From Candidatus Woesebacteria bacterium (GTDB lineage Bacteria; Patescibacteriota; Microgenomatia; UBA8517): a stretch of DNA of 64,000 bases. Of this stretch, positions 7,058 to 59,620 are shown in pieces. The notes below the pieces were generated by a model. That model did not search any database and was not told the origin of the DNA. It saw nothing but the letters and a program-made list of their open reading frames with translations. Numbering within the stretch: the first letter of the stretch is position 1; the number at the start of each line of letters is the position of its first letter. The DNA is taken from contig JAGVAE010000002.1 of assembly GCA_020060565.1 (NCBI GenBank), positions 307,270 through 371,269 on the forward strand, written 5' to 3'. The position numbers were made by a program, and so were the translations under genes.

Positions 7058-7100
7058 TTTTCGATTTGCGTTTTTGGCTTTTATAGTGTTATATTTGGTT

Positions 7101-7538: not shown

Positions 7539-7574
7539 TTATTGTCTTCATCTGGTAATATTAAGAGACTATAT

Positions 7575-8243: not shown

Positions 8244-8273
8244 TTAAAAAATAAAAATTTATAATTTAAAATT

Positions 8274-18813: not shown

Positions 18814-18834
18814 ATGTGTATTGTATCATTAAGT

Positions 18835-23729: not shown

Positions 23730-23731
23730 TT

Positions 23732-27791: not shown

Positions 27792-28235
27792 GTGAAAATC
27801 ACAATTAAAAAAACTGATTTAAAAGAAGTTTTTGCAATTCATAAAAAGATTCCTGAATTTACTCCAAATCCTCCAAAAACATTGAAAGAATTTGAAGATG
27901 AGATTAAAGATAAAAAGTATCTTGTTCTTACAGCGTACTGTGATGGAAAAATGGCGGGATACAGCATTGGATATGACAAATTTTCTGATAGATCATTTTA
28001 TATTTGGCTTTGTGGAGTAATTCCCGAGTACAGAAAGCAGGGTATATTTTCTTCACTTATCTTATATCAGGAGAAATGGTCAAACCAAAACGGTTACAAG
28101 TCAATAAAAGTGAAGACATGGAATAGACGAGTACAAATGCGGATCGCCTTGGATAAATTGGATTACTATTTGGTGGGTTTTGAAGAGAAACCAGATGTTT
28201 TAGATAATAGGTTGATATATGAAAAAATTCTTTAA
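27792..28235 (+). CDS. Small GNAT-like acetyltransferase-fold protein with a GTG start. Tentative.
   Basis: 'YSIGYDKFSDRSFYIWLCGVIPEYRKQGIFSSLI' resembles GNAT motif A (R/Q-x-x-G-x-G/A). Confidence 0.35.
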   Translation: MKITIKKTDLKEVFAIHKKIPEFTPNPPKTLKEFEDEIKDKKYLVLTAYCDGKMAGYSIGYDKFSDRSFYIWLCGVIPEYRKQGIFSSLILYQEKWSNQNGYKSIKVKTWNRRVQMRIALDKLDYYLVGFEEKPDVLDNRLIYEKIL

Positions 28236-29724
28236 ACAAAACTGGATTTATGTTATTGGGGGAATTGGGGTTTTGATTCTTTTTTCTTTGCGTTTTTGTA
28301 ATCTAACTCTTCTTCCTGTTTTTGCTGATGAAGCTATATATGTTCGTTGGGCACAGATAATGAAAGCTGAGGAAACTCTTCGTTTTCTTCCAATGTCTGA
28401 TGGCAAACAACCTTTTTATATGTGGGTTACAATTGCTTTTTTAAAGTTTATTAACGATCCCTTACTTGCAGGGCGTATCGTATCAGTACTATCAGGTCTA
28501 GGAACTTTAGCTGGAGTTTCTTTTCTTAGTTTTTTATTATTTAAATCTAAGAAAGCTGCCTTATTTGCTGCTATTGTCTATTCACTATCACCAATTACTT
28601 TCTTTTTTGACAGGATGGCATTGGTTGATTCAATGCTTGCAATGTTTGGAGTCTGGACATTTATCTTTGCATATCTTTCTATAACTCGTGAACGATTGGA
28701 CTGTGCGATGATAGCTGGTTTTTCATTGGGAGCGGCCTGGCTTACAAAGTCTCCAGCATTGTTTTTTGCTTTAATGCTTCCTACACTTTGGTTGTTTGCT
28801 AAGTCCAAAAGAAGTCTTATTAAAGTTATTCCGTTAACTTTTGTAACAGTTGTAATTGGTTATGGAATGTACAATATCCTGCGTCTTGGAACTAACTTTC
28901 ATATGATTGCACTCCGAAATTTGGACTATGTCTATCCTGTTAGCCATCTACTTTCTAGCCCCTTTGATCCTTTAAAGCCATTTTTGCTTCAAGTATGGCA
29001 GTGGTTAGTTATGATGGGACCTTGGCCGTTAATAGTATTAGGGGTTATTGGTTTGGTTGTTAATTTTAAGAAGAATTGGAAACAAAACACAGTTCTTCTA
29101 ATTTGGTTTATTGCTCCTATTGTTATTGAATCAGAATTTGCAAAAGTACTAACTGCCCGCTATATTCTTTTTACAATTCCGTTTTTGATTATAATTGCTT
29201 CATCTGCGTTTAATAGTTTATCAATTAGATGGTTACGAATTACAAGTTATGTAGTTTTAATTATATTTGTTGTACAGGCTTTTATTTTTGATTATTATCT
29301 TCTAACCAATCCTTCAAAAGCAAATCTGCCCAGGAGTGAAAGATCTGGCTATTTGGAAGAGTGGACCGCAGGACATGGTATTAAAGAAGTTTCAATTTAT
29401 ATCCAAGAATATCAACGAGCAAATCCTGGTAAAAAAATAATAGTGGGAACTGAAGGTTTTTTTGGGACACTACCTGATGCACTTCAAGCTTATTTGAATA
29501 GAGATAGAGAGATTACTGTCATTGGGGTTGGTCTTAATTTTACTGAAATTCCCATTTCCCTTAAAGAATCTTTTAAAGCGGGGAACACTACATTTTTAGT
29601 AATTAATGACAATAGATTTAATGGAAAAATTGAAGGAGAAGAACTAAAACTAATTTCAAGTTTTCCAAAGACCAAGCGACCTGATAGTTCTTATCAATCA
29701 CTACTATTATTTCAATTGAAATAA
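28219..29724 (+). CDS. ArnT/PMT_2-family GT-C glycosyltransferase (GT39/83-like).
   Basis: An N-terminal transmembrane helix, then 'LLPVFADEAIYVRWAQIM', the first-loop DE motif. About 12 transmembrane helices and a C-terminal soluble domain. Confidence 0.6.
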   Translation: MKKFFKQNWIYVIGGIGVLILFSLRFCNLTLLPVFADEAIYVRWAQIMKAEETLRFLPMSDGKQPFYMWVTIAFLKFINDPLLAGRIVSVLSGLGTLAGVSFLSFLLFKSKKAALFAAIVYSLSPITFFFDRMALVDSMLAMFGVWTFIFAYLSITRERLDCAMIAGFSLGAAWLTKSPALFFALMLPTLWLFAKSKRSLIKVIPLTFVTVVIGYGMYNILRLGTNFHMIALRNLDYVYPVSHLLSSPFDPLKPFLLQVWQWLVMMGPWPLIVLGVIGLVVNFKKNWKQNTVLLIWFIAPIVIESEFAKVLTARYILFTIPFLIIIASSAFNSLSIRWLRITSYVVLIIFVVQAFIFDYYLLTNPSKANLPRSERSGYLEEWTAGHGIKEVSIYIQEYQRANPGKKIIVGTEGFFGTLPDALQAYLNRDREITVIGVGLNFTEIPISLKESFKAGNTTFLVINDNRFNGKIEGEELKLISSFPKTKRPDSSYQSLLLFQLK

Positions 29725-29725
29725 A

Positions 29726-31495
29726 ATGAAATTATTATTAAAGATCATTATTGCAGCTTTAATCATTTTCATTATTTATCAATCACGTTGGATACTATCT
29801 TTCAAATACGAACCTGAATATTATGAAAACTTTTTTTATGAAAGCCAATACTCATATCCATCAAGTGCTAGGGGAATATCTGATGGTACTTTATATAAAT
29901 TCGTCGGTTATAGACTAACTCAAGGTGAAAATCCATTCAATATTAACTGGGAAATTCCTCCTTTTGGGAAAGTTTTATATGGGTATTCTTCAAGATTTCT
30001 GGGTAGTCCCTTTTGGTTTTCTTTAGCCTGTTTTTTTACAGCTTTGGTAGTTTTTTTCCTTATTCTTTCAAAGAATTTTAAAAATTATTTAATTCCATTT
30101 ATTGGTGTGGTGTTTTTGATTCTGATTCCACATTTTTCCAATCAGATTTCCGATACTATGCTGGATTTACCACTTACCCTTGCATATTTGGCTCATATGT
30201 TTTTCTTTTTTAATTATATTGACAAGAAAAAGATTATGAATTTAGTTGTAGCTGGTTCGCTGCTGGGAATTGCAAGTGCTATAAAACCACCAATATATGT
30301 GCCATTTATTTTGTTATTCGAACTTCTGATAGTTTATTTGAATGAGAAAAAGTTAAGAAGAGTTTTGATGCTTCCTATTTTTGTTTTTGCTGGTTATGTT
30401 TTAGGGTATTTTATTTATTTTGTCAGACATCCGAACCCTATTCCTTGGTTAAGACTTCATGAAAAGATTTATGATTTTTATTCAGGTTCAAAATTGGGAG
30501 TGAACTACACAGCTGCCATAAAAGAACTGTTTAATTTTGGTACTTGGGGATTTGTTTATGTGGCAGGACTAATTAGCTATTGTGTTTCCTGGACTAGATA
30601 TTTCAAAAACAAAAAAGATCTTAAGCTTTTGACAGCTATTTTGTTTTCAACGGTTTTTTTGGTAGTTAACTCTTTTATACCATTTTATCCAAGATATCTA
30701 TTGCCTCTCAGTTTTACCTTTATTTATTTAATTCTTTTTATGTTTAAGGATAAGCTTATAATTCCCCTTTTTATATGTGTTTTATCTTTTCCATTCTTTT
30801 ACAAAGCCTTTATCCCGTCTGATCCTGGAGGGGATGTGGGGGCGACTGCTAGATTTATTGAAACGAGAGCGGACAGAGAGCTTTATAGAGCAATTAATCC
30901 AAGTAAACGTAAAGAGATTTCGGAAAACGATTTTATCAATACACTTGAAAGCTTTAATAATACTTTGGGTACACGAAAAATACAGGTAACAATTGGAGAA
31001 GGTAATAAGCTTAATAACAAGTATTATTATGACCTTAATGTTAAATATGCCACAAGGTTTGGTGTGGTAGAGAACAATATACCTTTTGAATATGAGAATG
31101 TGCAAAATCAGTGGAAATTGAATTGGAATTGGGATTATCTTTATAAAGATTTCCTACCTGGATTGAATGTGGAATTTACCAAAAAACCATTACAACCATC
31201 CGAAATTTACGAAGTTTATATAATACCCAGACTAATGTTTGATTGGACTAAAAATTTAGACAATTTATCCAGATTAACAGGGGTATCTAGTCTTGTAATT
31301 AATCAAAAATTAACATCGGTAGTCCCCAACGGCTTTGAAAAGTTTGTTGGATACTTAAGTAAAGATGTTTCAGAAGTCGAGAGAGACGAAATAATGAAAG
31401 ACAATGGGGTAGTTAGGATTAAAAAAGTATACTTGGATCCGAAGACGGAATCTGAATCAAACTCGTTAATTTTAACTAAAACGTATTCCCAATAA
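29726..31495 (+). CDS. Polytopic membrane protein with about 10 transmembrane helices and a roughly 220-aa C-terminal extracytoplasmic domain of unknown fold.
   Basis: The hydrophobic N-terminal two-thirds is followed by a soluble C-terminus ('ETRADRELYRAINPSKRKEISEND...'). No known catalytic motif. Confidence 0.35.
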   Translation: MKLLLKIIIAALIIFIIYQSRWILSFKYEPEYYENFFYESQYSYPSSARGISDGTLYKFVGYRLTQGENPFNINWEIPPFGKVLYGYSSRFLGSPFWFSLACFFTALVVFFLILSKNFKNYLIPFIGVVFLILIPHFSNQISDTMLDLPLTLAYLAHMFFFFNYIDKKKIMNLVVAGSLLGIASAIKPPIYVPFILLFELLIVYLNEKKLRRVLMLPIFVFAGYVLGYFIYFVRHPNPIPWLRLHEKIYDFYSGSKLGVNYTAAIKELFNFGTWGFVYVAGLISYCVSWTRYFKNKKDLKLLTAILFSTVFLVVNSFIPFYPRYLLPLSFTFIYLILFMFKDKLIIPLFICVLSFPFFYKAFIPSDPGGDVGATARFIETRADRELYRAINPSKRKEISENDFINTLESFNNTLGTRKIQVTIGEGNKLNNKYYYDLNVKYATRFGVVENNIPFEYENVQNQWKLNWNWDYLYKDFLPGLNVEFTKKPLQPSEIYEVYIIPRLMFDWTKNLDNLSRLTGVSSLVINQKLTSVVPNGFEKFVGYLSKDVSEVERDEIMKDNGVVRIKKVYLDPKTESESNSLILTKTYSQ

Positions 31496-32155
31496 TACAA
31501 GTGCTCCGATAATAGCATCTTTAGCTTTTATTTTTTTGCCTTTCTCATAGCTCCTGGGTTTATATTTTATAGCAACTTCTTTTATTTGGATTTTTTTCTT
31601 AAGTAGTTTTGCGGTTATCTCTGCTTCTATTTCAAAACCGCTGGATTTAAGGTTTAAAGATTTAAAAATATTGGTGGGGATAAGTTTGTAGCATGTATAG
31701 CTGTCTGTTAATTTACTTCCAAATAAGACGTTACAAAAGGTTGTTATGGCAATATTTCCCAAATAGGTTCTAAGATATGCATGTTTACTTTTACCCATTA
31801 TTCTTGATCCATATACTACGCCACTTTTTGTGATTAGATTGGTCAACTTTGGAAATTCTGTAGGATCATACTCAAGGTCTGCATCTTGAATAATGGTGTA
31901 GTCACCCTTTACCATTTTTATTCCGGATCTTACGGCACCTCCTTTACCTAAATTTGTATTATGAGAAATGATTTTTAGTTTTTTGGCAAACCTTGCTGAC
32001 TTTTTAAGTTTTTGAAGAATTTGCAGTGTTTTATCAGTTGAACCATCATTAATAACAATTACTTCATAAATATCTTTTAAACCAATAACTTTATCCAAAA
32101 TTGTTTTTACGGTCGTTTCTTCATTAAGTACTGGGATAATTACCGAAAGTTTCAT
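31472..32155 (-). CDS. GT2 glycosyltransferase (DPM1/GtrB-like).
   Basis: 'LSVIIPVLNEETTV', 'VINDGSTDKT', 'QDADLEYDP'. It converges on the upstream gene with a 24-nt overlap. Confidence 0.8.
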   Translation of the reverse strand: MKLSVIIPVLNEETTVKTILDKVIGLKDIYEVIVINDGSTDKTLQILQKLKKSARFAKKLKIISHNTNLGKGGAVRSGIKMVKGDYTIIQDADLEYDPTEFPKLTNLITKSGVVYGSRIMGKSKHAYLRTYLGNIAITTFCNVLFGSKLTDSYTCYKLIPTNIFKSLNLKSSGFEIEAEITAKLLKKKIQIKEVAIKYKPRSYEKGKKIKAKDAIIGALVLLGIRFS

Positions 32156-32167
32156 ATAATTTAGATT

Positions 32168-33400
32168 GTGCGCAAATACTTTCCTATTTTAGCAATTTTG
32201 ATTATTTCTTCAATCATGAGATTTTGGAATTTAGGAAATATCCCTTTGGGGTTGTCGCTTGACGAAATTGAGTTGAGTTTACTTCTTCCCACGCCCTTTT
32301 TGATTAGACTTCCATTTGCTTTAATGGGAATACTTTCTATTTATCTTTTTTATAGGCTTGTAAGAAAAGTATTTAATGACGATAAAATTGCCTTGATTTC
32401 GACATTAATTTTGGGGGTTATTCCGTGGCATGTAACAGAAAGTAGAATTATGTCGTGGGGAATTATTCTATTATTGATTGGGGAAATACTAGCACTTTTT
32501 TTATTTAGATTTGTCAACAAAAAAAATAATATTTATCTTGGAATTATACTATTACTTGTTTGTGTAATTGTCCCTGTCTCAGGCTTGGCAATAAAAGTAA
32601 ACGATGAACGTTTGGTTGTAGTAAACAATTCTCCTAAGGTTCTTTCAAGAATATTTATAAATAAATTAACAGAAAACTTCAGACTCCGAGAAGAAACACT
32701 TTTTACTAATTTAGATTTTGGTAACTATTTTTTTGCTGGGCATCCAAGAGAAAGGGGTGGAATTGAAGAAACTCAAAAACTTTTATTATTTACTCTGCCA
32801 TTTATAGTTTTGGGGCTATTTAAACTTGGAAAAGATAAAAGTCAATTTTTATTTTCCTGGATTATTATTTCTCTTTTTGTTTTAACATTCTTTAATCTTC
32901 AGGGATCCCAAACATTAATACTAATATTCCCTTTTGTTGTGTTAGCTGCGATTGGAATAGTTAATGCACAGCGGATACTTGTGATTTTAGTGTTGATTTT
33001 TGGGATTTTTGAAAGTTTATATTTTTATAATTTGTATTTTTCGGGATTAACTGAAAGTCAGTTTTCTCCAAGAAGACCAGTATATATTGAACTGTCAGCA
33101 AAAATTAAAGATATAAAAAGAGAGGGTGAACATGTTTTGGTTAATGACAGAATTGGAAACTCCAAAGAATTTCTTAGTTTTTATTTGAAGAAAAATATCG
33201 AAGAGTTTGACTTTAGGATTTTTGATTATCACAAGGAGAGTGAAACGGGAAAATTATTTGTTGATGTTTTTCCTGATGATCCAATTTCTAATGAGCCGTT
33301 GTATACAAAAGATGGAGCTTGGCCTGACAACTTAACTATTCTTAGTGTTTTATATGATGTTGGTAAGCGACAGAAAGTAGTTATATATAGAACTAAATGA
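32168..33400 (+). CDS. Divergent or shortened ArnT-like GT-C paralogue (410 aa). GTG start.
   Basis: Its N-terminus 'MRFWNLGNIPLGLSLDEIELSLL' aligns with the paralogue motif 'LRLWNLG..P..DEAA', but the GYNAYS block is degenerate and the C-terminal domain is shorter. Confidence 0.4.
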   Translation: MRKYFPILAILIISSIMRFWNLGNIPLGLSLDEIELSLLLPTPFLIRLPFALMGILSIYLFYRLVRKVFNDDKIALISTLILGVIPWHVTESRIMSWGIILLLIGEILALFLFRFVNKKNNIYLGIILLLVCVIVPVSGLAIKVNDERLVVVNNSPKVLSRIFINKLTENFRLREETLFTNLDFGNYFFAGHPRERGGIEETQKLLLFTLPFIVLGLFKLGKDKSQFLFSWIIISLFVLTFFNLQGSQTLILIFPFVVLAAIGIVNAQRILVILVLIFGIFESLYFYNLYFSGLTESQFSPRRPVYIELSAKIKDIKREGEHVLVNDRIGNSKEFLSFYLKKNIEEFDFRIFDYHKESETGKLFVDVFPDDPISNEPLYTKDGAWPDNLTILSVLYDVGKRQKVVIYRTK

Positions 33401-34992
33401 CAAAGAAACTATTAATCACAGTTTTAATATTAGGAGCCATTTTGAGACTCTCCTGGCTTGGGACTATCCCATCAGGTTTTTTCAGAGATGAAGCAGCTAT
33501 TGGATATAATGCATATTCAATCTTTAAAACAGGAGCAGATGAGTTTGGAATGAGACTTCCTCTAGTTTTTAGATCCTTTGAAGTTTTCTTTCTACCTGCC
33601 TATCTTTATATTTCTGCCCCAATTGTGGGACTTTTAGGACTATCTGAATTTTCTACGAGGTTAATATCTACTCTTTCTGGGATAGCTGCAATTTATATAG
33701 TTTATTTAATTGCTAAAAATATTTGGGACAAAAAAGCAGGAATCTTTGCCGCTTTTGTTCTTGCTATATCTCCCTGGCACATTTTTTATAGCAGGGGAAC
33801 TTTTGAAGGGAACTTGGGATTGACTCTTTTTACTGCAGGATTTTACTTTTGGATACGGTTTTTGCAAAAACTAAATACTAAACATTTCCTTTTTTCTGGT
33901 ATTTTGTTTGCTCTTTCAATGTATTCATATCAAGCAGAAAGAGTAGTTGTCCCTTTGTTTATAATCTCTGCCCTTATTGTTAGTTTTAATAATTTTTGGA
34001 AAATAAAAACAAAATTAATCTTGCCAATTATTATTTTATTCATTCTTATGATTCCACTTCTCTCCTTGACGTTTAAACCTGGTGGGTATCATAGAGCGGT
34101 TGGAGTAAGTATTTTTTCTCAAATAACAAACCCACCGGGCTGGATAAGTGATATTTCCCCTGGGGTTTTGATAAATAATAAAACTTACTTAAGGGTTCGT
34201 GAGGTCTCATCGCTCTATCTTTCTTACTTTTCACCTCGCAATCTTTTTAATTTTGGGGATTACAATCGTCAGAGGTCTGTTGAGAATTCTAGTGTTTTTT
34301 ACTCCTTTATGATTATTGGACTAGTCTTTGGAATATGGAAGATTATTAAAAAAGGAACTGTTAATACAAAACTACTAATGTTGTGGTTAGTCTTTGCTCC
34401 CGTTCCAGCAGCTTTAACTGGAGATCCATTCCATACTTATAGAGCTCTACTTGTTTTTATTCCTTTTTCAATATTAATAGGCTATGGTTTTAGCCGTCTC
34501 AGTTATCAGAAAATCTTTTTAGGAGTTTCGCTTATTTCACTTTCAATATTTGTTTTTAATTATTTTTTTGTTACCCAGGTAACACGAGCTCATGATTGGG
34601 ATTGGGGATACAAAGAAATGAGTAGCTTTATTAATACTCTTCCGAAAGATCAAAAAATTGTAATAAATGACCTTTCAACAGAAAGCTATATTCATTATCT
34701 TTTCTTTAATAAAGTAGAACCCACCATTTATCAAAAAGAAGTAGCTTCTTTGGGTAATGTTTCGGATTACTATTATTCAGACCCAAGCGAAATTCGTCCA
34801 ACTAAAATTGACTCTCTTGAATTTAGAAAGGTGGATTGGCCAACAGAAAGAGGAAATACGAAAACTGTATTTGTAATGTGGGGAGACACCCTTCCCGATA
34901 GTGAGTATGAAAATGATCCAAAGGTAAGACTACTTAAAAAAATTTCATATCCTGACGGATCAGATGCTTTTAAAATTGTTGAGATAATTTAG
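33397..34992 (+). CDS. ArnT/PMT_2-family GT-C glycosyltransferase.
   Basis: 'LRLSWLGTIPSGFFRDEAAIGYNAYSIFKTGADEFG'. Multi-pass membrane protein with a C-terminal soluble domain. Confidence 0.6.
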   Translation: MTKKLLITVLILGAILRLSWLGTIPSGFFRDEAAIGYNAYSIFKTGADEFGMRLPLVFRSFEVFFLPAYLYISAPIVGLLGLSEFSTRLISTLSGIAAIYIVYLIAKNIWDKKAGIFAAFVLAISPWHIFYSRGTFEGNLGLTLFTAGFYFWIRFLQKLNTKHFLFSGILFALSMYSYQAERVVVPLFIISALIVSFNNFWKIKTKLILPIIILFILMIPLLSLTFKPGGYHRAVGVSIFSQITNPPGWISDISPGVLINNKTYLRVREVSSLYLSYFSPRNLFNFGDYNRQRSVENSSVFYSFMIIGLVFGIWKIIKKGTVNTKLLMLWLVFAPVPAALTGDPFHTYRALLVFIPFSILIGYGFSRLSYQKIFLGVSLISLSIFVFNYFFVTQVTRAHDWDWGYKEMSSFINTLPKDQKIVINDLSTESYIHYLFFNKVEPTIYQKEVASLGNVSDYYYSDPSEIRPTKIDSLEFRKVDWPTERGNTKTVFVMWGDTLPDSEYENDPKVRLLKKISYPDGSDAFKIVEII

Positions 34993-35009
34993 TGTGCTAT
35001 CATGAAGAA

Positions 35010-40076: not shown

Positions 40077-40085
40077 AAAAAGTAA

Positions 40086-40472: not shown

Positions 40473-40493
40473 CTTCCGTGCTACAATTTAAGG

Positions 40494-43605: not shown

Positions 43606-43632
43606 TTGATCAATTGGTGATACAATTTAGCC

Positions 43633-44532: not shown

Positions 44533-44533
44533 T

Positions 44534-51236: not shown

Positions 51237-52921
51237 TTTTTTTTAAAAAATTGCTTAAAGTTAAGATATTATTAATAACAATTGTCTTATTGGCATCTTT
51301 CTTACGGCTTTATAAAATTTCGATAAATCCTCCATCGCTTTTTGGTGATGAATTGGATTTGGGTTACCAAGCTTATTCAATACTTAAAACAGGACGCGAC
51401 TATCAAGGTAATTTTATGCCAATTCATTTCCACTCTTTGGCTGAATGGAGAACCCCGCTTTATTTATACTCCGCAGTTCCTACGGTTGCTGTGTTTGGTA
51501 TAACTCCACTTGGAGTACGGCTTCCCGCAGCTATATTTGGTATTTTGAGTGTGGTAGCAATGTATTTATTTGTTACCGAATTGACAAAAAACAAACGTTT
51601 AGGAGTTCTTTCGGCTTTTTTAATGGCAGTGTCTCCCTGGGCATTGCAATATTCAAGAGCAGGTTTTGAAGTAACGGAAATGTTATTTTTCCTAATTCTT
51701 GGCCTCTATTTCTTCTTAAAATCTCTTTTTCAATCAAGATACTTATGGCTTTCTGTTATTTGTTTGGTTATAACTCCTTTGATTTACTCTACTGCCAAAC
51801 TGTTTATTCCACTTCTTTTGGTTTTTCTATTTATTCTATATAGAAAAGAAGTCGTAAAATTTAAAAGAAAAGATTTAATTGTTGCACTTGTTTCTGGGTT
51901 GATTATTGGTATACCAGTTATTTATAGCACCCTTTTTGGTGGCGGAACTCAAAGAATTGGCGATATTAGTGTTTTCTCTGATCCAAATATGGAACAGGTA
52001 GTTGGAAACGGAAGGAACATTAGCAACAATAGATTCATTTATAATAAATATACTTACTGGGGAGGAAAAATTGTTGATAATTATCTTCAATCATTTTCTC
52101 CAGAATTTCTTTTTTTAAAGGGAGATATTAATCTTCGTCAATCTACAGGGATTGGTGGATTGTATTTGATTGAAATAATTGCTCTCATGTCTGGTTTAGG
52201 TTTTTTCTTCTTTGGAAGGGAGATTAGCATTAAAGTAAAATATCTAATGGGTTTTTGGATTCTTTTGGGAAGTGTTCCCTCAGCCTTAACAATTGGTGGA
52301 GGAGCTCATGCAACTCGTCTAATTTTAATTTTACCCGCATTAATATTTTTTATTTCTTTTGGTTGGGTAGCAATTTATAAAATAGTTGCACAAAAATATA
52401 AAACATCTTTTGTTGTTGCTATTTCCGTTTTGTATGCATTATGCATGCTCTTCTATTTTCATAGATATTATGCAATTTACCCAACAATTAGTGTCAATTG
52501 GTGGCATTATGGATGGAAAGGCGCAATATCTGAGATAAAATCGATTGATTCAAATTATGACCGTGTAATCATTTCAATGAAGGGGGAGCCAGCTTGGATA
52601 TTTTTTGCTGGTTACTATCAATATGATCCACATCTTTGGCAGACAGAATTTCCAATTGGAAAGGATGTTGAAGTCTCTGGATTTGGAAAGATCTCCCATA
52701 TAGGAAAATATTATTTTGGCTCTCCCAATGAGGAAGTCAAAATATACGGGTTGGGCAAGTATATAGATGCAAAAACCTTGTATTTAGCTAATGCCAACGA
52801 AGACGGAGAAAACCTGGTTAAATATCCAGATAAAACACCAGATGGGTTGAAGCTTATAAAAAGTATTACTTATCCTTCAGGTGAACCCGCATTTTATCTT
52901 TTTGAAGGAACTGCAAAATGA
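51215..52921 (+). CDS. ArnT/PMT_2-family GT-C glycosyltransferase, tandem array member 1 of 5. ATG at 51215; the track has TTG at 51200.
   Basis: 'LRLYKISINPPSLFGDELDLGYQAYSILKTGRDYQGNFMP'. Confidence 0.6.
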   Translation: MAKNNFIIFFKKLLKVKILLITIVLLASFLRLYKISINPPSLFGDELDLGYQAYSILKTGRDYQGNFMPIHFHSLAEWRTPLYLYSAVPTVAVFGITPLGVRLPAAIFGILSVVAMYLFVTELTKNKRLGVLSAFLMAVSPWALQYSRAGFEVTEMLFFLILGLYFFLKSLFQSRYLWLSVICLVITPLIYSTAKLFIPLLLVFLFILYRKEVVKFKRKDLIVALVSGLIIGIPVIYSTLFGGGTQRIGDISVFSDPNMEQVVGNGRNISNNRFIYNKYTYWGGKIVDNYLQSFSPEFLFLKGDINLRQSTGIGGLYLIEIIALMSGLGFFFFGREISIKVKYLMGFWILLGSVPSALTIGGGAHATRLILILPALIFFISFGWVAIYKIVAQKYKTSFVVAISVLYALCMLFYFHRYYAIYPTISVNWWHYGWKGAISEIKSIDSNYDRVIISMKGEPAWIFFAGYYQYDPHLWQTEFPIGKDVEVSGFGKISHIGKYYFGSPNEEVKIYGLGKYIDAKTLYLANANEDGENLVKYPDKTPDGLKLIKSITYPSGEPAFYLFEGTAK

Positions 52922-52974
52922 CAAGCTTTGCTAAGTAATGTCTCTTAGCCTTCTTGATGGTACAATTATTGTAG

Positions 52975-54669
52975 ATGAAAAGGATCGCAATTTGGGTTAT
53001 TCTGATTTTTGCATTTTTGCTTCGTTTTATATTAATAGATAAATATCCAATGGGATTTAATGCCGATGAAGCCTCTTTTGGTTATGATGCCTATTCAATC
53101 TTAAAAACTGGCAAGGACCAGTGGGGGAACACATTTCCTTTAGTCCTTAAGTCGTTTGGGGATTATAAATCACCAATCTTTAGCTATCTGACGATTCCAT
53201 CGATCGCCGTCTTTGGTCTTAGTGTCTTTGCAACCCGCCTTCCCAATGTAATAATTGGCACTCTAGCTGTTTTTGCAGTTTATTTATTAGTTCTTGAAAT
53301 TGGTAAATTGAAAATTAGTCATTCATTGAAAATTGGCAATTGGAAATTGGCAATTGCGGCAAGTTTTTTGCTTGCCGTCAATCCTTGGAGTGTAATGATG
53401 AGTAGAGGTGCATTTGAAGCGAACTTGATTACTCTTTTTTTACCTCTTGGAATTTATTTCTTTTTAAGAGCACAGGAAAACAGTAAGTATTATGTTTGGT
53501 CCTCTGTTTTTTTTGGAATTAATCTTTTTACGTATCATTCAGCAAAATTTATTACCCCAATAGTACTTGTTGGGCTAATACTTATTTTTAGAAAGTCTAT
53601 TGCAAATATCAAATTCAATAAAATTTTACCGTCACTGGTAATGTTTTTAGTATTCTTTGGTGCTCTTGTTTACTCTTTGACAATTGGGGGCGCAACTAGA
53701 ATGGTAGAAAGAAGTATTACTCAAGGCGCACTTATCCAGGGTTTTGATGAGAGAATGGAAGCACTTTCTCACGGGTCAAACCCAATAGTTGCCAAAATAC
53801 TTCACAATAAATATCAAGTAATGGTAAGTAGGTTTATTTTTAATTATTTTCAATATTATTCGCCTAAATTTTTAATTAATGATGGGGCTGGGGACGGAAG
53901 CTATGGAATGATACCTGGTGTTGGAGTTGTTAACATGGTTGAAATTGTTTTGTTCTTTGGAATTATTCCACTATTGTTTATTGAGAAAAAGTATAAAAAC
54001 GTACTTTTGGTGGTTTTAGCTTGGTTGGCTATAACTCCAGTTCCTGCTGCATTGGCAACAGGTATAGGTTACTCGGGCAATAGAGCAGAAGGGATGATTC
54101 CTGTTTTACAAATCATTGGAGCCTTTGGATTTGTTGGATGGGCACTTCTTTTAAAAAGATTTAAAAGGATCTATTTTAAAATTGTATTGGTTTGTTTAGG
54201 TATACTATTAATTTTTGGAGTATATGGATTTGTCAGATCATACTTTAAGATTCCTTCAAATCTAGTATTAAGTCAGCAAATATATGGGAGTTTAGAGGTT
54301 GCTGCTTGGTTGTCAGAAAACAGCAAAGGACGTGAAGTATTGGTTAGTAGAAGCTTAACTGAAACTCAAATCTTTGTAGCATTTGCAAATGCTTGGGATC
54401 CAATTAATTTTCAGAAAAATACAAAAACCTGGGGGTTTGATGAGTCAAACTTATCTTGGGTAGATCAATTACCAAATTATTCAGTTGGAAATTATACATT
54501 TAAATCCATCGATCCAATAAAAGATTTTATGGGGGATAGATTAATTGTTTTGAGGGCTCATGAGTTCGTAGGAGAACAAATTCCGACAAAAGTATTTTAT
54601 TATCCAGATGGAACACCAAATATTTATGTTTTAGATATGAACCAAAAAGCTTATGCAAACAACATATAA
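52975..54669 (+). CDS. ArnT/PMT_2-family GT-C glycosyltransferase, array member 2.
   Basis: 'LRFILIDKYPMGFNADEASFGYDAYSILKTGKDQWGNTFP'. It contains an AATTGG-based repeat at 53296-53357. Confidence 0.6.
   Translation: MKRIAIWVILIFAFLLRFILIDKYPMGFNADEASFGYDAYSILKTGKDQWGNTFPLVLKSFGDYKSPIFSYLTIPSIAVFGLSVFATRLPNVIIGTLAVFAVYLLVLEIGKLKISHSLKIGNWKLAIAASFLLAVNPWSVMMSRGAFEANLITLFLPLGIYFFLRAQENSKYYVWSSVFFGINLFTYHSAKFITPIVLVGLILIFRKSIANIKFNKILPSLVMFLVFFGALVYSLTIGGATRMVERSITQGALIQGFDERMEALSHGSNPIVAKILHNKYQVMVSRFIFNYFQYYSPKFLINDGAGDGSYGMIPGVGVVNMVEIVLFFGIIPLLFIEKKYKNVLLVVLAWLAITPVPAALATGIGYSGNRAEGMIPVLQIIGAFGFVGWALLLKRFKRIYFKIVLVCLGILLIFGVYGFVRSYFKIPSNLVLSQQIYGSLEVAAWLSENSKGREVLVSRSLTETQIFVAFANAWDPINFQKNTKTWGFDESNLSWVDQLPNYSVGNYTFKSIDPIKDFMGDRLIVLRAHEFVGEQIPTKVFYYPDGTPNIYVLDMNQKAYANNI
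53330..53357 (+). repeat. A 14-bp tandem duplication (aaattggcaattgg / aaattggcaattgc) built from AATTGG units, inside the ArnT-like gene at 52975..54669. More AATTGG-like units lie just upstream at 53296-53316.
   Basis: Read directly from the sequence. The position is homologous to the repeat in the paralogue at 56700. Confidence 0.7.
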
Positions 54670-56368
54670 ATCAAAATGGAAAGAAATTGGGACCTTAATT
54701 GTAATTGTTGTTTTGGGGTTTTTTTTAAGATGTTATTCTCTTACTTCTTTTCCACCTTCACTAAATTGGGATGAGGTATCACATGGTTACAATTCATATT
54801 CTATTTTGAAGACGGGAAAAGATGAATGGGGAGAAAACTTACCTTCGATCTTCAGGGCGTATGGAGATTATAAACTTCCTGTCTATATATACATAACTAC
54901 AATATCAATAAAAGCATTTGGTTTAACTGATTTTGCAGTGAGATTTCCCTCTGTGTTGGCAGGAGTGGGAACTATAATCGCAACATACTATTTGACGTAT
55001 GAGTTGTTTAGGAAAAGGAAACTCGGTTATTTATCAGCTTTCTTAGTTGCTGTTGAACCCTGGAGTCTTTTTACTTCCCGAGGGGCATTTGAAGCTAATT
55101 TAGCCTTGTTTTTTGTTGTTCTTGGTGTTTATTTCTTTGTAAAGATTATTAAGAATTCTAAATATCTAATATTTTCATCATTCTTTTTAGGTCTTTCTGT
55201 ATGGACTTACAATTCGGCACGCGGATTTGTTCCAATCCTATTGATAGTTATGGCAATGCTGTATAAAAAAGGTCTAAAAGACATTTTTTCAAGAAACATA
55301 AAAACCATTATATTTAGCGCCTTAGTTTTGATGGTTTTTTTAATTCCCATGTTTGTCCAACTTATGCAGCCATCTGGTCAGGCGCGGTATGGCAAAGTTT
55401 CACTTATAGATAATGGAGCAATTACTCAAATAAATGAGTCAAGAAGGATTTCAAAACTGTCACCTTTTCTTAACCGAGCAGTTAATAATAAAGTTACATA
55501 TTTTGCTAAACATTTTACGGTTAATTGGGTCTCACACTTTTCTTTCGATTTCCTGTTTTTTAATGGTGGGAGCAATTATCAGTTTAACATTCCAAAGCAC
55601 GGCATAATCTACATTATCAATGTGATACCGATGATTGTAGGTTTTGTTTGGCTGATTATTAAGAGGTCAAAGAGTGCAATTCTACTTATTGCTTGGTTGT
55701 TAATATCGCCAATTCCGTCATCCATAACAAATGAAGCACCTCATGTCTTAAGGGTAATAACCATGCTTCCCGTGCCAATGATTATTACGGCAATTGGTAT
55801 TTACAAAATGGCAGAGTGGTTGAAAAACAAAATTCATGTTTCAAGAAGTATAACTATAACTTTATACATAATAGTTATTTTTGTTTTTTTGGAAAACTAC
55901 ATGATAAATTACTTTACTAATTATAGGAGAGATTATTCATGGAGTTGGCAATATGGTTACAAAGAAGTTGTTGGTTATGTAAGAGACAATTACAATAACT
56001 ACGATAAAATTATTGTAACAAAAAAGTATGGTGAACCCCATGAATACTTTTTGTATTATCTAAAGTATGATCCCATCAAATACCATAACGATTCGGAAAA
56101 GATAACCTTTTATCAAAGTGGTTGGTGGTGGGTAGATAGATTTGATAAATTTTATTTTGTAAACGATTGGCAGATTAAACTTAACCCTGATTATATGAGT
56201 AGTATTCAGCAGTCTTTTATAACAGAATCAAAAAATATGGTCGATTGTTCTAATGTAAAATGTTTACTTGTAACTTCGCCTGACAATTTTCCACCAGGAT
56301 GGAAAAAAGTAAAAACAACCAAATTTTTAGATGGAAGTGTGGCATTTGAAATGTATGAAAATAATTAA
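54653..56368 (+). CDS. ArnT/PMT_2-family GT-C glycosyltransferase, array member 3.
   Basis: 'LRCYSLTSFPPSLNWDEVSHGYNSYSILKTGKDEWGENLP'. Confidence 0.6.
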   Translation: MQTTYKSKWKEIGTLIVIVVLGFFLRCYSLTSFPPSLNWDEVSHGYNSYSILKTGKDEWGENLPSIFRAYGDYKLPVYIYITTISIKAFGLTDFAVRFPSVLAGVGTIIATYYLTYELFRKRKLGYLSAFLVAVEPWSLFTSRGAFEANLALFFVVLGVYFFVKIIKNSKYLIFSSFFLGLSVWTYNSARGFVPILLIVMAMLYKKGLKDIFSRNIKTIIFSALVLMVFLIPMFVQLMQPSGQARYGKVSLIDNGAITQINESRRISKLSPFLNRAVNNKVTYFAKHFTVNWVSHFSFDFLFFNGGSNYQFNIPKHGIIYIINVIPMIVGFVWLIIKRSKSAILLIAWLLISPIPSSITNEAPHVLRVITMLPVPMIITAIGIYKMAEWLKNKIHVSRSITITLYIIVIFVFLENYMINYFTNYRRDYSWSWQYGYKEVVGYVRDNYNNYDKIIVTKKYGEPHEYFLYYLKYDPIKYHNDSEKITFYQSGWWWVDRFDKFYFVNDWQIKLNPDYMSSIQQSFITESKNMVDCSNVKCLLVTSPDNFPPGWKKVKTTKFLDGSVAFEMYENN

Positions 56369-57980
56369 AAAACTGTTCACTGTTCACGGTCTACTGTTCA
56401 CTGCAATTGCTCTTGCAGCAATACTTAGACTGTGGAATTTGGGGAGTAATCCTCCAAGCCTTACTCCTGATGAAGCAGCGCTTGGATATAATGCATATTC
56501 GATTCTTAAAACTGGTAAAGATGAACACGGAACAGTGTTGCCTATCATTTTTAAATCGTTTGGAGACTTTAAACCTGGGCTTTATGTTTACTTAACAATT
56601 CCATCAATTGCTATATTTGGTTTAAATGAGTTTGCCACAAGACTTCCATCCGCTTTAGCTGGAGTTATTTCTGTGTTTTTGGTTTATTTAATAATTAGGA
56701 AATTGGAAATTGGAAATTGGAAATTGGGAATTATCGCGGCATTTGTCGCTGCTATTAATCCCTTTCTCATTTATTTTTCCAGGGGCGCTTGGGAAGCAAA
56801 TGTCTCCCTTACATTAACTCTATTTGGAATTTATTTTTTCTTAAAAGCCGTTAAAGACAGCAGGTACTTACTACTTAGTACTTTGTACTTTGCACTGACG
56901 CTAGTCACTTATCAGGGAGCCAAGTTATCAACAGCAATTGTTCTATTCCTTCTGATTGCTATATATTGGAAAGATTTTTGGAATATAAAATTGAAATATT
57001 TACTTATTTCGTTAGGGTTGGGAATTGTCATTTCGATTCCAATAATATTAAGTCTGTTCAATGGGCAAACACAAAGACTTACTATATATAGTATTTTTTC
57101 TTTTGTTCGTCCTGAGACGGAAATACAAACTTACTCAGATGGATATTTTTGGTTATTTCACTCAAATGCTCTCAATCATGCCAGAATGGTTGCGAGTCGT
57201 TGGTTTAATTTCTATTCAGGACAATTTCTTGTGTTTGAAGGGGATGTTGCTAATCCTCGCTATGGTGTCCCGTACCAAGGGGTTTTACTTATGGCAGATT
57301 TATTTATGTTACTGTTGGGGCTTTTTACGCTTTTTAAAAACAAAATGTCCAAGCCAAGCTTGTTTATATTCTTATGGTTAATTCTGGCACCCTTTTCGGC
57401 CGCTCTTTCTAGAGATCAGACAAATGCAGTAAGATCTTTAAATGCCGCAATACCTTTGATTGTTATTATTTCATTTGGTTTTAACCAAGTGGTAAGTTGG
57501 ATATCCATTCAGAGAATTAAGTTTCCTTACTACATACTACTTTCTACATTCTACTTCTTTAGTTTTGTTTACTTCCTTGATGCTATTTTTGTTCATTTAC
57601 CTGCTCATAACTCTAGTTACTGGAAATATGGTTATAAAGAAGCTGTAAGCTATATCACCGAAGTTGAATCAAAATATACACATATAATCTTTGAACAATC
57701 ATTTGACCAACCGTATATTTACTTCCTTTTTCATCAAAAGTACAGTCCAACTAAGTTTCAAGACCAGGCAAATCTAGTAAGTAGCCAATACAAAGGAGAC
57801 GTAGGATTTCAAACTCGATTGGACAATATTAGATTTGAACAGATAGATTGGAGTGCATTAAAGAATGACCATAATGTTTTGGTTGTGAGTTCAACGAATC
57901 CTGAAAAGTACCCTGTTATTAAAGAGATAAATTATTTAAATGGTCGCGATGTTGCCTTTAATATTATCGAAATAAAGTAA
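56355..57980 (+). CDS. ArnT/PMT_2-family GT-C glycosyltransferase, array member 4. Start at ATG 56355.
   Basis: 'LRLWNLGSNPPSLTPDEAALGYNAYSILKTGKDEHGTVLP'. It contains (AAATTGG)x4 at 56700-56727. Confidence 0.6.
   Translation: MKIIKKLFTVHGLLFTAIALAAILRLWNLGSNPPSLTPDEAALGYNAYSILKTGKDEHGTVLPIIFKSFGDFKPGLYVYLTIPSIAIFGLNEFATRLPSALAGVISVFLVYLIIRKLEIGNWKLGIIAAFVAAINPFLIYFSRGAWEANVSLTLTLFGIYFFLKAVKDSRYLLLSTLYFALTLVTYQGAKLSTAIVLFLLIAIYWKDFWNIKLKYLLISLGLGIVISIPIILSLFNGQTQRLTIYSIFSFVRPETEIQTYSDGYFWLFHSNALNHARMVASRWFNFYSGQFLVFEGDVANPRYGVPYQGVLLMADLFMLLLGLFTLFKNKMSKPSLFIFLWLILAPFSAALSRDQTNAVRSLNAAIPLIVIISFGFNQVVSWISIQRIKFPYYILLSTFYFFSFVYFLDAIFVHLPAHNSSYWKYGYKEAVSYITEVESKYTHIIFEQSFDQPYIYFLFHQKYSPTKFQDQANLVSSQYKGDVGFQTRLDNIRFEQIDWSALKNDHNVLVVSSTNPEKYPVIKEINYLNGRDVAFNIIEIK
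56700..56727 (+). repeat. A perfect heptanucleotide microsatellite, (AAATTGG)x4, inside the ArnT-like gene at 56355..57980 (it encodes KLEIGNWKL).
   Basis: Read directly from the sequence. Confidence 0.8.
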
Positions 57981-59620
57981 TGAAAAAAATATTATTAGTA
58001 TTGATAATCCTTTTAGCTTTTATTTTAAGGTTTTGGAAACTGGATGTGTATCCAGCTTTAAATGCCGATGAAGCAGCTATTGGCTACAATGCTTATTCAT
58101 TAATTCAAACTGGGTTGGATGAACATGGTCATTCATTTCCAATTCATTTCCAATCATTTAATGACTATAAACCAGGTCTATATTTCTATTTAGTTTTACC
58201 TTTCGTTAAAGTATTGGGATTGACAGAATGGGCGGTTAGGATCCCAGGGGCACTCTTGGGGGTATTGTCTGTTTTTGTTCTCTATCTTTTAGTTAACGAA
58301 TTATTCAAAAACAAAAAACTTGCTTTAGTATCTTCATTGTTCCTTGCCATATCCCCCTGGCACCTGCAATTTAGTAGGGGTGGGTGGGAAGTAAACACTG
58401 CAACATTTTTTATATTAAGTGGACTTTTGTTTTTCTTTAAAGCATTAAATGAAGAATTGTTTCGTTCAAAAATTATTAAGCTTGCGGCAAGTTCAATATT
58501 TTTTGTTGCGTCTCTTTACACTTACCACGCAGCAAGAGTTATTGTTCCACTTTTAGGTCTTTCCATTCTAGTTATTTATTGGAAAAAGATACTAATAAAT
58601 TTTAAGCCATATTTGATATTTTTGATAATTATCATAGTATTACTTCTTCCCCTTGTTCAGAATCTTCTTTCTTCTGGAACACTATCAAGAGTTGCAGGGG
58701 TGGGGCTTTTTGCAGACCTTGGTCCCATCAATCGCACAAACGAGCAAAGAGGGGAACATGGAAGTGTAACAAGTATTACAGGCAGGCTACTTCATAATAA
58801 AGTTATAAATTATGGATTGGCATTTGCTGATAATTGGACATCTCATTTTAATGGTGAGTATTTGTTTATGTCAGGTGACTCTATTGAAAGAAATAAAGTT
58901 CCGGAAACAGGGGAGATGTACTTGATTGATATTCTCTTTTTGGTAATTGGATTTATATATCTTTCAAAAGGTTTTAATAATAGTTGGAAATTTATAATTT
59001 TGTGGTTAGTGATTGCGCCCATTGCCTCAGCCCTGACTTTCCAGTCCCCCAATGCTTTAAGATCGCAAAATATGGTGATTCCACTTGTTGTAATAAGTGC
59101 CTTTGGACTAACAAAGATAGTTGAATGGTTAAATAGTCAAATGGTTAGTAATATCTTGCGTACTACATTCTACATACTACTTGCCACTTTTATTATTTGG
59201 AATTTCACACGATACCTAAATATGTACTACTTACATATGAGCAAAGTTTATCCTTATTCTTCTCAGTATGGGGTTAAGGAGCTTGTTACATATGTTTCTG
59301 AGAATCAATCGAAGCATAAAGATATATATATAACAAACAGATATGATCAGCCATATATTTTATTTTTATTCTACTTAAAATATTCACCTCAAATGTTTCA
59401 AGAAAATCATAGCTTAACTTCCCGTGATGGTTATGGTTTTTCAACTGTTGCCAATTTTGATAAATATCACTTTGGATCAATTGATTTTGATTCATTCAAG
59501 AATAATTACCCAGAAAGCCTCATAATAGGTGCACCTAGCGAGATACCAAATTCAGCAAATATTATTAAGCGGATTTACGGAACAAATGGATTTGAATATT
59601 TTGATATAGTACAAGATTAG
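57980..59620 (+). CDS. ArnT/PMT_2-family GT-C glycosyltransferase, array member 5.
   Basis: 'LRFWKLDVYPALNADEAAIGYNAYSLIQTGLDEHGHSFP'. Confidence 0.6.
   Translation: MKKILLVLIILLAFILRFWKLDVYPALNADEAAIGYNAYSLIQTGLDEHGHSFPIHFQSFNDYKPGLYFYLVLPFVKVLGLTEWAVRIPGALLGVLSVFVLYLLVNELFKNKKLALVSSLFLAISPWHLQFSRGGWEVNTATFFILSGLLFFFKALNEELFRSKIIKLAASSIFFVASLYTYHAARVIVPLLGLSILVIYWKKILINFKPYLIFLIIIIVLLLPLVQNLLSSGTLSRVAGVGLFADLGPINRTNEQRGEHGSVTSITGRLLHNKVINYGLAFADNWTSHFNGEYLFMSGDSIERNKVPETGEMYLIDILFLVIGFIYLSKGFNNSWKFIILWLVIAPIASALTFQSPNALRSQNMVIPLVVISAFGLTKIVEWLNSQMVSNILRTTFYILLATFIIWNFTRYLNMYYLHMSKVYPYSSQYGVKELVTYVSENQSKHKDIYITNRYDQPYILFLFYLKYSPQMFQENHSLTSRDGYGFSTVANFDKYHFGSIDFDSFKNNYPESLIIGAPSEIPNSANIIKRIYGTNGFEYFDIVQD

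Follow-up and report, generated by a model that had tools for sequence, protein, structure and literature searches.

What is an array of membrane glycosyltransferase genes, standing almost side by side on a Woesebacteria chromosome, there to build, and how did it arise? The question is raised by a 64,000-nucleotide stretch of the Candidatus Woesebacteria bacterium assembly GCA_020060565.1 (contig JAGVAE010000002.1, positions 307,270 to 371,269; hereafter the window, to whose numbering coordinates refer), in which an earlier note, made from the sequence alone, had listed 14 membrane glycosyltransferases of the GT-C fold and read them as a rapidly diversifying island. We find 17 such genes in an array that, by sequence comparison, appears to be ancient and stably inherited, and we consider it probable, at a rough probability of 0.6, that the region is a core cell-envelope glycan factory of this Microgenomates (Patescibacteria) bacterium.

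The scheme in which a GT-A enzyme, a flippase and a GT-C enzyme act together has been reviewed (PMC8035078), and the mycobacterial set of GT-C enzymes working with polyprenyl-phosphate sugars offers a precedent for large, though not contiguous, GT-C sets (PMC2157549, PMC3123699). We found no published description of the present array in the literature on glycosyltransferases of Patescibacteria, the candidate phyla radiation (CPR) or Woesebacteria: the nearest statement is one that credits a single Microgenomates genome with '29 genes of glycosyl transferases' (PMC7143001), a recent perspective on Patescibacteria biology never mentions glycans or glycosylation, and a 2024 Saccharibacteria paper calls glycosylation processes unexplored.

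Results

Seventeen GT-C genes of several families

The 17 genes, designated A to Q in order of position, lie between 20259 and 59620 and occupy 27,873 nt, or 71%, of that 39,362-nt span. Ten products exceed the threshold of the Pfam family PMT_2, one (E) is assigned to the same type through its homologues, four (H, I, J and L) are YfhO/PTPS-related, A is PIG-M-like and K belongs to an unannotated family. All 14 genes counted before exist at their coordinates, their starts being identical to ours or differing by the choice of start codon only (34992 against 35010, 51200 against 51215 and 56331 against 56355), but the count falls short by three: A (20259–21416, minus strand), E (29726) and K (41947–43605).

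The PMT_2 gathering threshold (PF13231, 26.1 bits) is exceeded, at 27.8–61 bits, by gene products B (22155–23729, 524 aa, 39.3 bits, about ten transmembrane segments), C (24708–26234, 508 aa, 29.2 bits, 25% identical to B by BLASTP), D (28219–29724, 501 aa, 42 bits), F (32168–33400, a short and atypical protein of 410 aa, 36.1 bits on residues 42–131) and G (33397–34992, 531 aa, 61 bits), and by the tandem set M (51215–52921, scored from 51200), N (52975–54669), O (54653–56368), P (56355–57980, scored from 56331) and Q (57980–59620) at 27.8–46.6 bits, all on the plus strand. D, M, O and Q (28219, 51200, 54653 and 57980) also exceed the 22.7-bit cut-off of PMT (PF02366), D with 34 bits. The eight genes described earlier as ArnT/PMT_2-like are thus all borne out, and B and C, which had been set apart as a 'DxGRD' family, fall above the same PMT_2 threshold.

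An acidic motif in the first extracytoplasmic loop is common to these proteins. It reads GDEGRD in B and YDQGRD in C, while in an alignment of the eight sequences just mentioned the D-E pair is invariant, as the earlier note had seen. The longer GYNAYS..KTG.DE.G block that it ascribed to all eight is present in six (33397, 51215, 52975, 54653, 56355 and 57980; DE..GYNAYS..TGxDExG in G); F (32168) lacks the stretch, and D (28219) has a first loop of another sequence, with a DEA motif and without the GYNAYS block. The D-E pair is invariant in 53 P-family sequences (six paralogues of the G and M–Q types and 47 P-type homologues), and the remaining families have invariant first-loop acids of their own: D42 in that of H, I and J, D50 in that of K and D51 in that of A. 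Among orthologues complete at the N-terminus, 228 of 289 (79%) retain the first-loop block.

Three members are less typical. Gene E (29726–31495, plus strand, 589 aa) has a C-terminal NTF2-like (MecA_N) extracytoplasmic domain, and its own matches are weak (PMT_2 17.7 bits, E 4.4e-3, below threshold; MecA_N E 5e-3); PF13231 and/or PF02366 is present, however, in nearly all of its 120 listed homologues, and PF05223 in about 38 of them. One public source names E an 'ABC-type multidrug transport system fused ATPase/permease subunit', which looks like a mis-annotation, Pfam finding neither an ABC nor an ATPase domain in it. Gene A, a small protein of 385 aa, is placed at profile level only: its direct PMT_2 score of 19.4 bits (E 1.3e-3) and its NCBIfam match to a 'cell surface glycopolymer formation protein' (E 9e-9) both fall under the cut-offs, its family profile aligns with that of the PMT_2 paralogues over 261 columns (hhalign 90%, E 1.5e-6), and GPI mannosyltransferase 1 is a PDB match (E 0.0017). 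Finally, F keeps the D-E pair with most of the first loop gone (an alignment gap of about 35 columns), and in relatives only its residues 160–270 or so match separate membrane proteins of 250–280 aa encoded near G-type genes; its catalytic competence is doubtful, and the protein may have arisen by fusion, may serve as an inactive partner or, conceivably, may come from a decaying pseudogene.

The four proteins previously called YfhO-like are less uniform than that name implies. L (47191–49524, plus strand, 777 aa) is a clear case, with 82.5 bits against a YfhO (PF09586) cut-off of 28.5, whereas H (34992–36695) passes PTPS_related instead (29.9 bits, cut-off 26.4), J (38358–40076) remains below the YfhO threshold at 25.1 bits and I (36655–38361) has no Pfam match but is 30% identical to H and J over its full length. 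H, I and J, all on the plus strand, are 30–39% identical to one another over their full lengths, and I, J and L have a C-terminal PGWKAYVDG motif in common that is visible even in the DNA. The H/I/J profile aligns with the PMT_2 paralogue profile (hhalign 87%); a sequence search of the PDB with it returned nothing usable and no YfhO structure.

Fold and topology

The AlphaFold2 (AF2) model of P (pLDDT 88.9, pTM 0.91) was searched against the PDB with Foldseek, and its 30 best matches are all GT-C enzymes, AglB, STT3, ArnT, PglB, ALG12, ALG9, Pmt4, AftA, AftD and EmbC among them; ArnT is the best by TM-score (0.57) at a sequence identity of 10–11%. Across the models, GT-C structures match with a probability of 1.00 and TM-scores of 0.45–0.57, against 0.05–0.2 and about 0.1 for MFS, CLC and other transporters. 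At the sequence level the PMT_2 paralogue profile also reaches ArnT in the PDB (E 2.6e-4), as well as STT3 and Pmt4. These results uphold the GT-C fold proposed earlier and place the modelled proteins outside the transporter families.

A hydropathy scan finds 6–11 transmembrane segments in each of the 17 proteins, and AF2 modelling gives, for P as well as for K, a bundle of at least 12 long helices. Wherever it is resolved, the stretch preceding the first transmembrane segment is net positive, and an acidic residue follows that segment by about 8–35 residues in 17 of 17 proteins. Both the positive-inside rule and the homology to GT-C enzymes of solved structure suggest that the first-loop acidic motif should face outwards, in agreement with the earlier proposal of an outward DE loop.

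Gene K and the Wzx flippase

Gene K (41947–43605, plus strand, 552 aa) begins within the end of a gene for a Wzx-type flippase of lipid-linked oligosaccharides (40494–41987, plus strand; Polysacc_synt_3 180.7 bits, Polysacc_synt 94.7 bits) and is followed by a set of cytoplasmic Leloir glycosyltransferases identified by Pfam, namely two GT2 enzymes (43633–44532 and 44447–45472), a GT2-like protein (45403–46185) and a GT4 enzyme (46166–47194), all on the plus strand. We retrieved 1,343 homologues of K from Patescibacteria; the 120 that were listed are devoid of Pfam domains and, if named at all, are called 'hypothetical protein'. K itself has no Pfam match at E-values up to 0.01 (STT3 included), no NCBIfam family and no sequence match in the PDB, while its profile reaches an hhalign probability of no more than 34% against the PMT_2 profile and does not match that of H, I and J. 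The identity of K is settled by structure prediction only: the model has a GT-C fold, and the solved structures nearest to it are the oligosaccharyltransferases (OSTs) STT3, AglB and PglB, the likeness extending to an AglB-like C-terminal domain.

We considered K as a canonical OST of family GT66 and rejected the assignment. No WWDYG-like motif occurs in any of 50 family members, which instead conserve motifs of their own (GFWGANGHDGxWH, PWNTIQFFYY and RPPA), and neither Pfam STT3 nor a PDB sequence is matched. For these reasons the modelled K is best described as an OST-like GT-C enzyme of a family outside Pfam and NCBIfam rather than as a GT66 member, and sequon-type N-glycosylation by it is unlikely. 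As in N-glycosylation clusters, in which OST genes adjoin a flippase and GT2/GT4 enzymes, K directly follows Wzx, which suggests, as a lead and not as a result, that it handles the flipped oligosaccharide.

Probable donor synthases, flippases and nucleotide sugars

Five small GT2 proteins are likely, from profile comparisons, to make lipid-linked sugar donors. The first (18706–19992, plus strand, 428 aa) is a polyprenyl-phosphate sugar synthase-type GT2 domain fused to a membrane domain of the GtrA flippase family (Glycos_transf_2 93.7 bits; GtrA_DPMS_TM 59.8 bits, cut-off 26.1). The second (21463–22173, plus strand, 236 aa) overlaps the start of B, the third (26231–26977, plus strand, 248 aa) overlaps the end of C, and the fourth (31472–32155, minus strand, 227 aa; Pfam GT2 106.9 bits) is transcribed divergently from F, so that three GT2/GT-C pairs stand side by side (21463/22155, 24708/26231 and 31472c/32168). 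Of the fifth (63343–64000, plus strand; Pfam GT2 88.8 bits) only the start is present, the gene running past the window end. A profile of the five finds its best PDB matches in DPMS (5mlz, 2.7e-41), GtrB (5ekp, 2.3e-31) and ArnC (9bhc, 2e-28); the matches to DPMS and ArnC span about the whole profile, that to GtrB its positions 7–181 and those to other GT2 structures mostly its N-terminal half.

The best NCBIfam matches of these synthases are ArnC (for 21463), PgfS (for 18706 and, with dolichyl-phosphate hexose transferase, for 26231), AglJ (for 31472c, 104 bits) and PpgS. All lie far under the equivalog cut-offs (the ArnC model gives the stand-alone proteins 55–67 bits against a cut-off of 529), and because of this the sugars cannot be named.

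Two flippase candidates are present, the GtrA_DPMS_TM domain of 18706–19992 and Wzx. Two further genes were tried as GtrA flippases and rejected: 27792–28235 encodes a GNAT acetyltransferase, and 40086–40472 (plus strand, between J and Wzx) has no significant match, showing a very weak hint of a double-stranded beta-helix (E 0.043).

Nucleotide-sugar genes stand upstream of the array, on the plus strand, as a dTDP-rhamnose set recognised by the Pfam families NTP_transferase, GDP_Man_Dehyd/Epimerase, dTDP_sugar_isom and RmlD_sub_bind: RmlA-like 13917–14807, RmlB-like 14804–16723, RmlC 16729–17313 and RmlD 17310–18209. The RmlB-like protein is a fusion of a dehydratase (residues 1–300) with an additional C-terminal half, some 320 aa long, which has no Pfam match and in which a degenerate Nudix-like box (GGFPKLNESVLNFILRSLKKDLGL) can be made out by eye.

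Further Leloir enzymes and sugar-metabolic genes, all on the plus strand and assigned by Pfam, are two GT2 glycosyltransferases between L and M (49502–50407 and 50400–51236) and, after Q, a GT2 (59628–60476), a short-chain dehydrogenase (SDR; 60701–61408), a GT4 (61439–62401) and an NAD-dependent sugar epimerase (62405–63343). The GT2, GT4 and Wzx genes noted earlier are real, and there is support for the idea that this part of a CPR/Patescibacteria genome is devoted to extracytoplasmic glycosylation. From 13.9 kb to the window end nearly every gene belongs to sugar metabolism or glycan assembly, almost throughout on the plus strand and with short gaps or overlaps, and the region extends beyond the window.

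Conservation and age of the array

The region is ordinary chromosome and not a recently acquired or mobile island, since its GC content is flat (0.31–0.37, without a compositional break) and housekeeping genes lie inside it: TrmD at 18163–18813 on the minus strand, and a DHH/DHHA1 phosphoesterase at 23681–24724. The window holds no tRNA genes, which were examined as possible island borders. The phosphoesterase (plus strand) is NrnA-like and stands between B and C, overlapping both.

How old the duplications are can be judged from the paralogues themselves, which are 21–39% identical to one another. A DNA repeat search found a single notable family, a 97-nt block encoding the motif at 62–73% identity, and no repeat that is longer or, at that length, more than 73% identical; recent duplication or gene conversion is rejected on this ground. 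Furthermore, each paralogue has one best match in relatives at 44–70% identity, against about 30% to the second-best paralogue. One-to-one orthologues in conserved gene order are found in GCA_041485065.1, GCA_040961635.1, a Blackburnbacteria genome (Microgenomates group) and one further related locus, L004 (related loci are numbered L001 onwards). In the first two assemblies, on contigs of 690 kb and 931 kb, the order runs D-E-H-I-J-Wzx-K-GT2-GT2-x-GT4 ... M ... N-O-P-Q-GT2-SDR-GT4-x-epimerase-GT2-DUF2304. Gene D has orthologues 68% identical in L011 and L012, H, I and J have one-to-one orthologues 57–65% identical in L012, the order of the four Leloir genes after K (GT2-GT2-GT2-like-GT4) is shared with L011 and L012, and the GT2-SDR-GT4-epimerase run also follows the Q-type gene in L001, L002 and L013. 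At the position of the 63343 GT2, relatives encode a 222-aa GT2, then a DUF2304 protein, a further GT2 and an unannotated product some 480 aa long (L001 17967–18958; L013 18075–19071). The GT2/DUF2304 pair resembles the mycobacterial PpgS/Rv3632 pair.

Gene P (56355) has 3,675 matches at E ≤ 1e-5; among the best 120 its orthologues are 52–75% identical, and where the source names the organism it is Patescibacteria or Woesebacteria. In a neighbour-joining tree D, G, M, N, O, P and Q form seven orthologous clades, each with at most one member per genome. A scan of metagenomes with an alignment gave 24 loci that have a P orthologue (36–64% identity) at their centre and measure 20 kb or more, and a scan of genome contigs with a single protein gave 8 loci, 2 of them useful. 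Every one of the 24 long loci holds 5–9 GT-C genes per 21.6 kb or so (median 7), in a recurring order M-N-(H)-O-P-Q-(A); 10 of them have an A-type gene after that of the Q type. The array is the rule in this lineage, and its clustering is not a matter of chance, given its recurrence in all the related loci that were examined. Gene content does differ: E, H and I are missing from L011, a further H-like gene stands between N and O in L001, and the metagenome loci differ in additional M-, O- or P-like copies.

Low paralogue identity, one-to-one orthologues and a common order in distant genomes together indicate that the duplications predate the radiation of the group and that the array is ancient and stably inherited, each copy evidently under its own constraint. 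The rapid diversification by tandem duplication that the earlier note had proposed does not survive this comparison.

Two of the retrieved entries, L004 (CAYIKF010000001.1) and L009 (CAZTFV010000001.1), are titled 'uncultured Gammaproteobacteria bacterium'. L004 carries a Microgenomates-type N-H-O-P-Q array at 40–54% identity, and its assembly looks mislabelled or mis-binned; L009 has a weak match only (25% identity over residues 21–369).

Other genes of the window

Upstream of the glycosylation genes, and likewise on the plus strand, FtsE (7542–8243) and FtsX (8274–9191) are followed by a secreted protein (9188–10351) combining a PcsB-type coiled coil with a C39-like cysteine peptidase; the three genes (7542–10351) resemble a cell-wall hydrolase module under FtsEX control in which the catalytic domain is unusual. 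At the thresholds used, no Pfam family is matched by the products of 490–1803 (plus), 1800–2444 (minus), 5549–6010 (plus), 7074–7538 (plus) and 40086–40472 (plus).

Discussion

A probable multiplied transmembrane glycosylation system

The locus is most likely a multiplied multi-component transmembrane glycosylation system, the array probably building a complex surface glycan outside the cell membrane. By sequence and structure similarity, nucleotide sugars including dTDP-rhamnose would be made in the cytoplasm, where Leloir GT2 and GT4 enzymes would assemble a lipid-linked oligosaccharide and the five DPMS-, GtrB- and ArnC-like GT2s would load single sugars onto polyprenyl phosphate. The fused GtrA-type domain and Wzx would flip these lipid-linked sugars across the membrane, and outside it the 17 GT-C enzymes, using the first-loop Asp/Glu, would move sugars from the lipid carrier to an acceptor; the GT-C fold is borne out by modelling for two families, the chemistry is inferred. 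We picture an assembly line in which each GT-C enzyme would have one fixed linkage or acceptor specificity, given the one-to-one orthologues in distant relatives and the 17:5 ratio of GT-C enzymes to donor synthases, and in which one or a few complex surface glycans would be elongated and branched stepwise. K would be the best candidate for receiving the flipped oligosaccharide, by en bloc transfer or by polymerisation. Of the two options that the earlier note left side by side, many donors or many acceptor sites, this ratio fits many acceptor or linkage specificities.

The components match those of the three-component systems of Firmicutes and enterobacterial phages (CsbB/GtcA/YfhO, GtlA/GtlB, YkcC/YkcB, GacI/GacL and GtrA/GtrB/GtrC; PMC8035078, PMC5836110), which likewise combine a GT2 synthase, a GtrA or Wzx flippase and a PMT_2 or YfhO GT-C enzyme with an acidic first-loop motif; the three adjacent GT2/GT-C pairs recall CsbB/YfhO or GtrB/GtrC. 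The known organisms, however, have about one to three scattered pairs, whereas here 17 GT-C genes and 5 synthases lie within some 45 kb, about three GT-C genes for each synthase, and the acceptor polymers of the models (lipoteichoic acid, wall teichoic acid and rhamnan) are not known to exist here.

The array can also be compared with the mycobacterial and corynebacterial set (EmbA/B/C, AftA–D, MptA–D and PimE), in which many GT-C enzymes draw on one or a few polyprenyl-phosphate donors and act successively outside the membrane to build arabinogalactan, lipomannan and lipoarabinomannan (PMC2157549, PMC3123699, PMC10265970), as the enzymes of our assembly line would. That set, too, has one-to-one orthologues across its clade, and AftA, AftB, AftD and EmbC are structural matches of the models made here; at the sequence level, in contrast, there is no orthology, and the Pfam families differ, those of the array being PMT_2 and YfhO. 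The mycobacterial GT-C genes are also mostly dispersed, embCAB apart, in a 4.4-Mb genome.

With the ArnC/ArnT pathway of lipid A aminoarabinose modification (GT83; 5EZM, 5F15) the array has in common that ArnT is the best PDB sequence match of the PMT_2 profile and that the small GT2s have ArnC as one of their leading matches. The identity to ArnT is nonetheless as low as that given above for P, and the window holds none of the Arn sugar-modifying genes. Patescibacteria are regarded as lacking lipopolysaccharide, which makes lipid A an unlikely acceptor.

Several points weigh against a single core factory. Beyond the fold and family of these proteins, everything said of them is inferred, and two families are structure-modelled, H, I, J and L resting on Pfam and profile similarity. 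No GT2 or GT-C protein reaches any NCBIfam equivalog cut-off, so no specific function can be transferred, and the window contains no initiating phosphoglycosyltransferase, Wzy-type polymerase or LCP catalytic domain. Gene F, lacking most of loop 1, may be inactive. Moreover, a single assembly line competes with several independent decoration systems; relatives vary in their members, L011 with its missing E, H and I being an example.

Possible acceptors and alternative readings

Possible acceptors are a polymer of the wall, a lipoglycan and surface proteins with Ser/Thr/Pro-rich linkers. A wall-linked polymer is suggested by the MecA_N-type domain of E and by the rml, Wzx, GT2 and GT4 genes.

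The alternative that fares best differs from the glycan factory in the acceptor only: the array would serve mainly to O-glycosylate proteins on Ser/Thr-rich disordered linkers, as actinobacterial Pmt and the streptococcal GtrB/PgtC2 and PgfS/PgfM1 systems do, with different paralogues for different protein targets or sugars. We regard this as possible, though rather improbable as the chief function. The PMT and PMT_2 families owe their names to protein O-mannosyltransferases, PgfS is the top NCBIfam match of the GT2s 18706 and 26231, and in streptococci membrane proteins, LytR among them, are glucosylated in their Ser/Thr-rich regions by the YfhO-family PgtC2 together with the synthase GtrB (PMC11092751), a pairing of two kinds of protein, YfhO-family GT-C enzyme and GtrB-type synthase, that are also encoded here. 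Candidate membrane-anchored, Ser/Thr/Pro-rich proteins are likewise at hand in the window, two proteins with mucin-like linkers being encoded upstream of the array. One, an LTD-domain protein (10396–11199, plus strand), has a Pro/Thr/Ser-rich linker at about residues 150–210 that is Pro-rich throughout and reaches 53% Ser+Thr in a 30-aa window; in the other, a LytR_C-domain protein (4819–5526, plus strand), it is the C-terminal tail that is rich in Ser, Thr and Pro. Either protein could plausibly serve the array as an acceptor of O-glycosylation.

Against proteins as the main acceptor speaks the number of enzymes: one or two GT-C proteins suffice for initiation in known systems, the streptococcal one having a single GT-C enzyme, and 17 conserved paralogues are hard to explain in that way; the scores to PgfS, as said, also lie far under the equivalog cut-offs. 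The rml, Wzx, GT2 and GT4 genes point rather to a polysaccharide, and the NTF2-like MecA_N domain of E, a Pfam family from PBP2a-type transpeptidases, hints at a wall-linked acceptor. Pfam also reports no MIR domain in any of the GT-C proteins; such domains are typical of eukaryotic PMTs, but bacterial Pmt is not known to have them either, so that their absence does not exclude a Pmt-like role. Wall-polymer and protein acceptors are in any case not exclusive.

We are more doubtful that the many paralogues are subunits of hetero-oligomeric GT-C complexes in the manner of Pmt1–Pmt2 and EmbA–EmbB, some of them catalytically dead acceptor-binding or scaffold partners, with the number of distinct reactions well below 17. 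Tandem genes that often overlap do suggest co-translation in fixed amounts, gene F could be such a partner for want of most of its loop 1, and solved GT-C structures among the matches are dimeric (Pmt1–Pmt2, 6p25; EmbA–EmbB, 7bvf; the Pmt4 homodimer, 9i5k); it has also been speculated, in a review, that acceptor binding by small GT-C enzymes may depend on partner proteins (PMC8035078). Yet the first-loop D-E pair is invariant in the six G- and M–Q-type paralogues and the 47 P-type homologues, and the retention of the block in 79% of the orthologues scanned argues that most members are active enzymes.

A fast-evolving island that diversifies by tandem duplication was the interpretation first offered for this locus; taken as recent duplication in the service of surface antigen variation or of phage or host evasion, it is now largely refuted and very improbable. 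The paralogues do stand in tandem, and relatives (L011, L001 and the metagenome loci) do show some variation in gene content; the low paralogue identity, the lack of long or close DNA repeats, the uniform GC content and the grouping of paralogues with the orthologues of other genomes rather than with their neighbours all speak against it. Lastly, it is hardly credible that weak profile matches have led to a mis-assignment of what would really be transporters, or membrane proteins of some other non-glycosyltransferase kind: several Pfam scores are modest (27–46 bits) and one source gives 29726 a transport name, but the fold searches, with their low transporter TM-scores, refute this for the two modelled families, and 29726 has no ABC or ATPase domain.

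Implications

The components of the glycan factory that we propose are of known kinds, namely PMT_2, YfhO, DPMS-like GT2, GtrA and Wzx proteins; what seems unusual is their number, their contiguity and their conservation in genomes whose largest contigs are below 1 Mb, together with the unannotated OST-like family. The genome is probably small, as the largest contigs of the relatives examined measure 0.69–0.95 Mb, and the GT-C genes, at about 28 kb, would amount to roughly 3% of such a genome. The evolutionary picture is corrected from a fast-diversifying island to an old and stable enzyme set, the listed homologues of K, over 1,300 in number, become open to annotation as a GT-C family of OST-like enzymes, and the five candidate donor synthases and the candidate Ser/Thr-rich acceptors in the window are concrete targets.

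This investment of genes, together with one-to-one orthologues across Microgenomates, argues that an elaborate extramembrane glycan is central to the biology of organisms that represent, with the other Patescibacteria, a large share of bacterial diversity, are mostly uncultured and have surfaces that are chemically unknown. A bolder version, which we offer tentatively and think unlikely to hold in full, is that of a large Microgenomates surface heteroglycan built almost wholly outside the membrane by an independently evolved GT-C line of the mycobacterial type: K would represent a new bacterial OST-like branch without WWDYG, transferring en bloc or polymerising the Wzx-flipped oligosaccharide onto a non-sequon acceptor, the 16 PMT_2-, YfhO- and PIG-M-like paralogues would extend and branch the chain with the five polyprenyl-phosphate donors, and the glycan would be a defining and probably essential part of the envelope in this group. 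If this were true, that glycan may be the surface through which these ultra-small bacteria meet their hosts.

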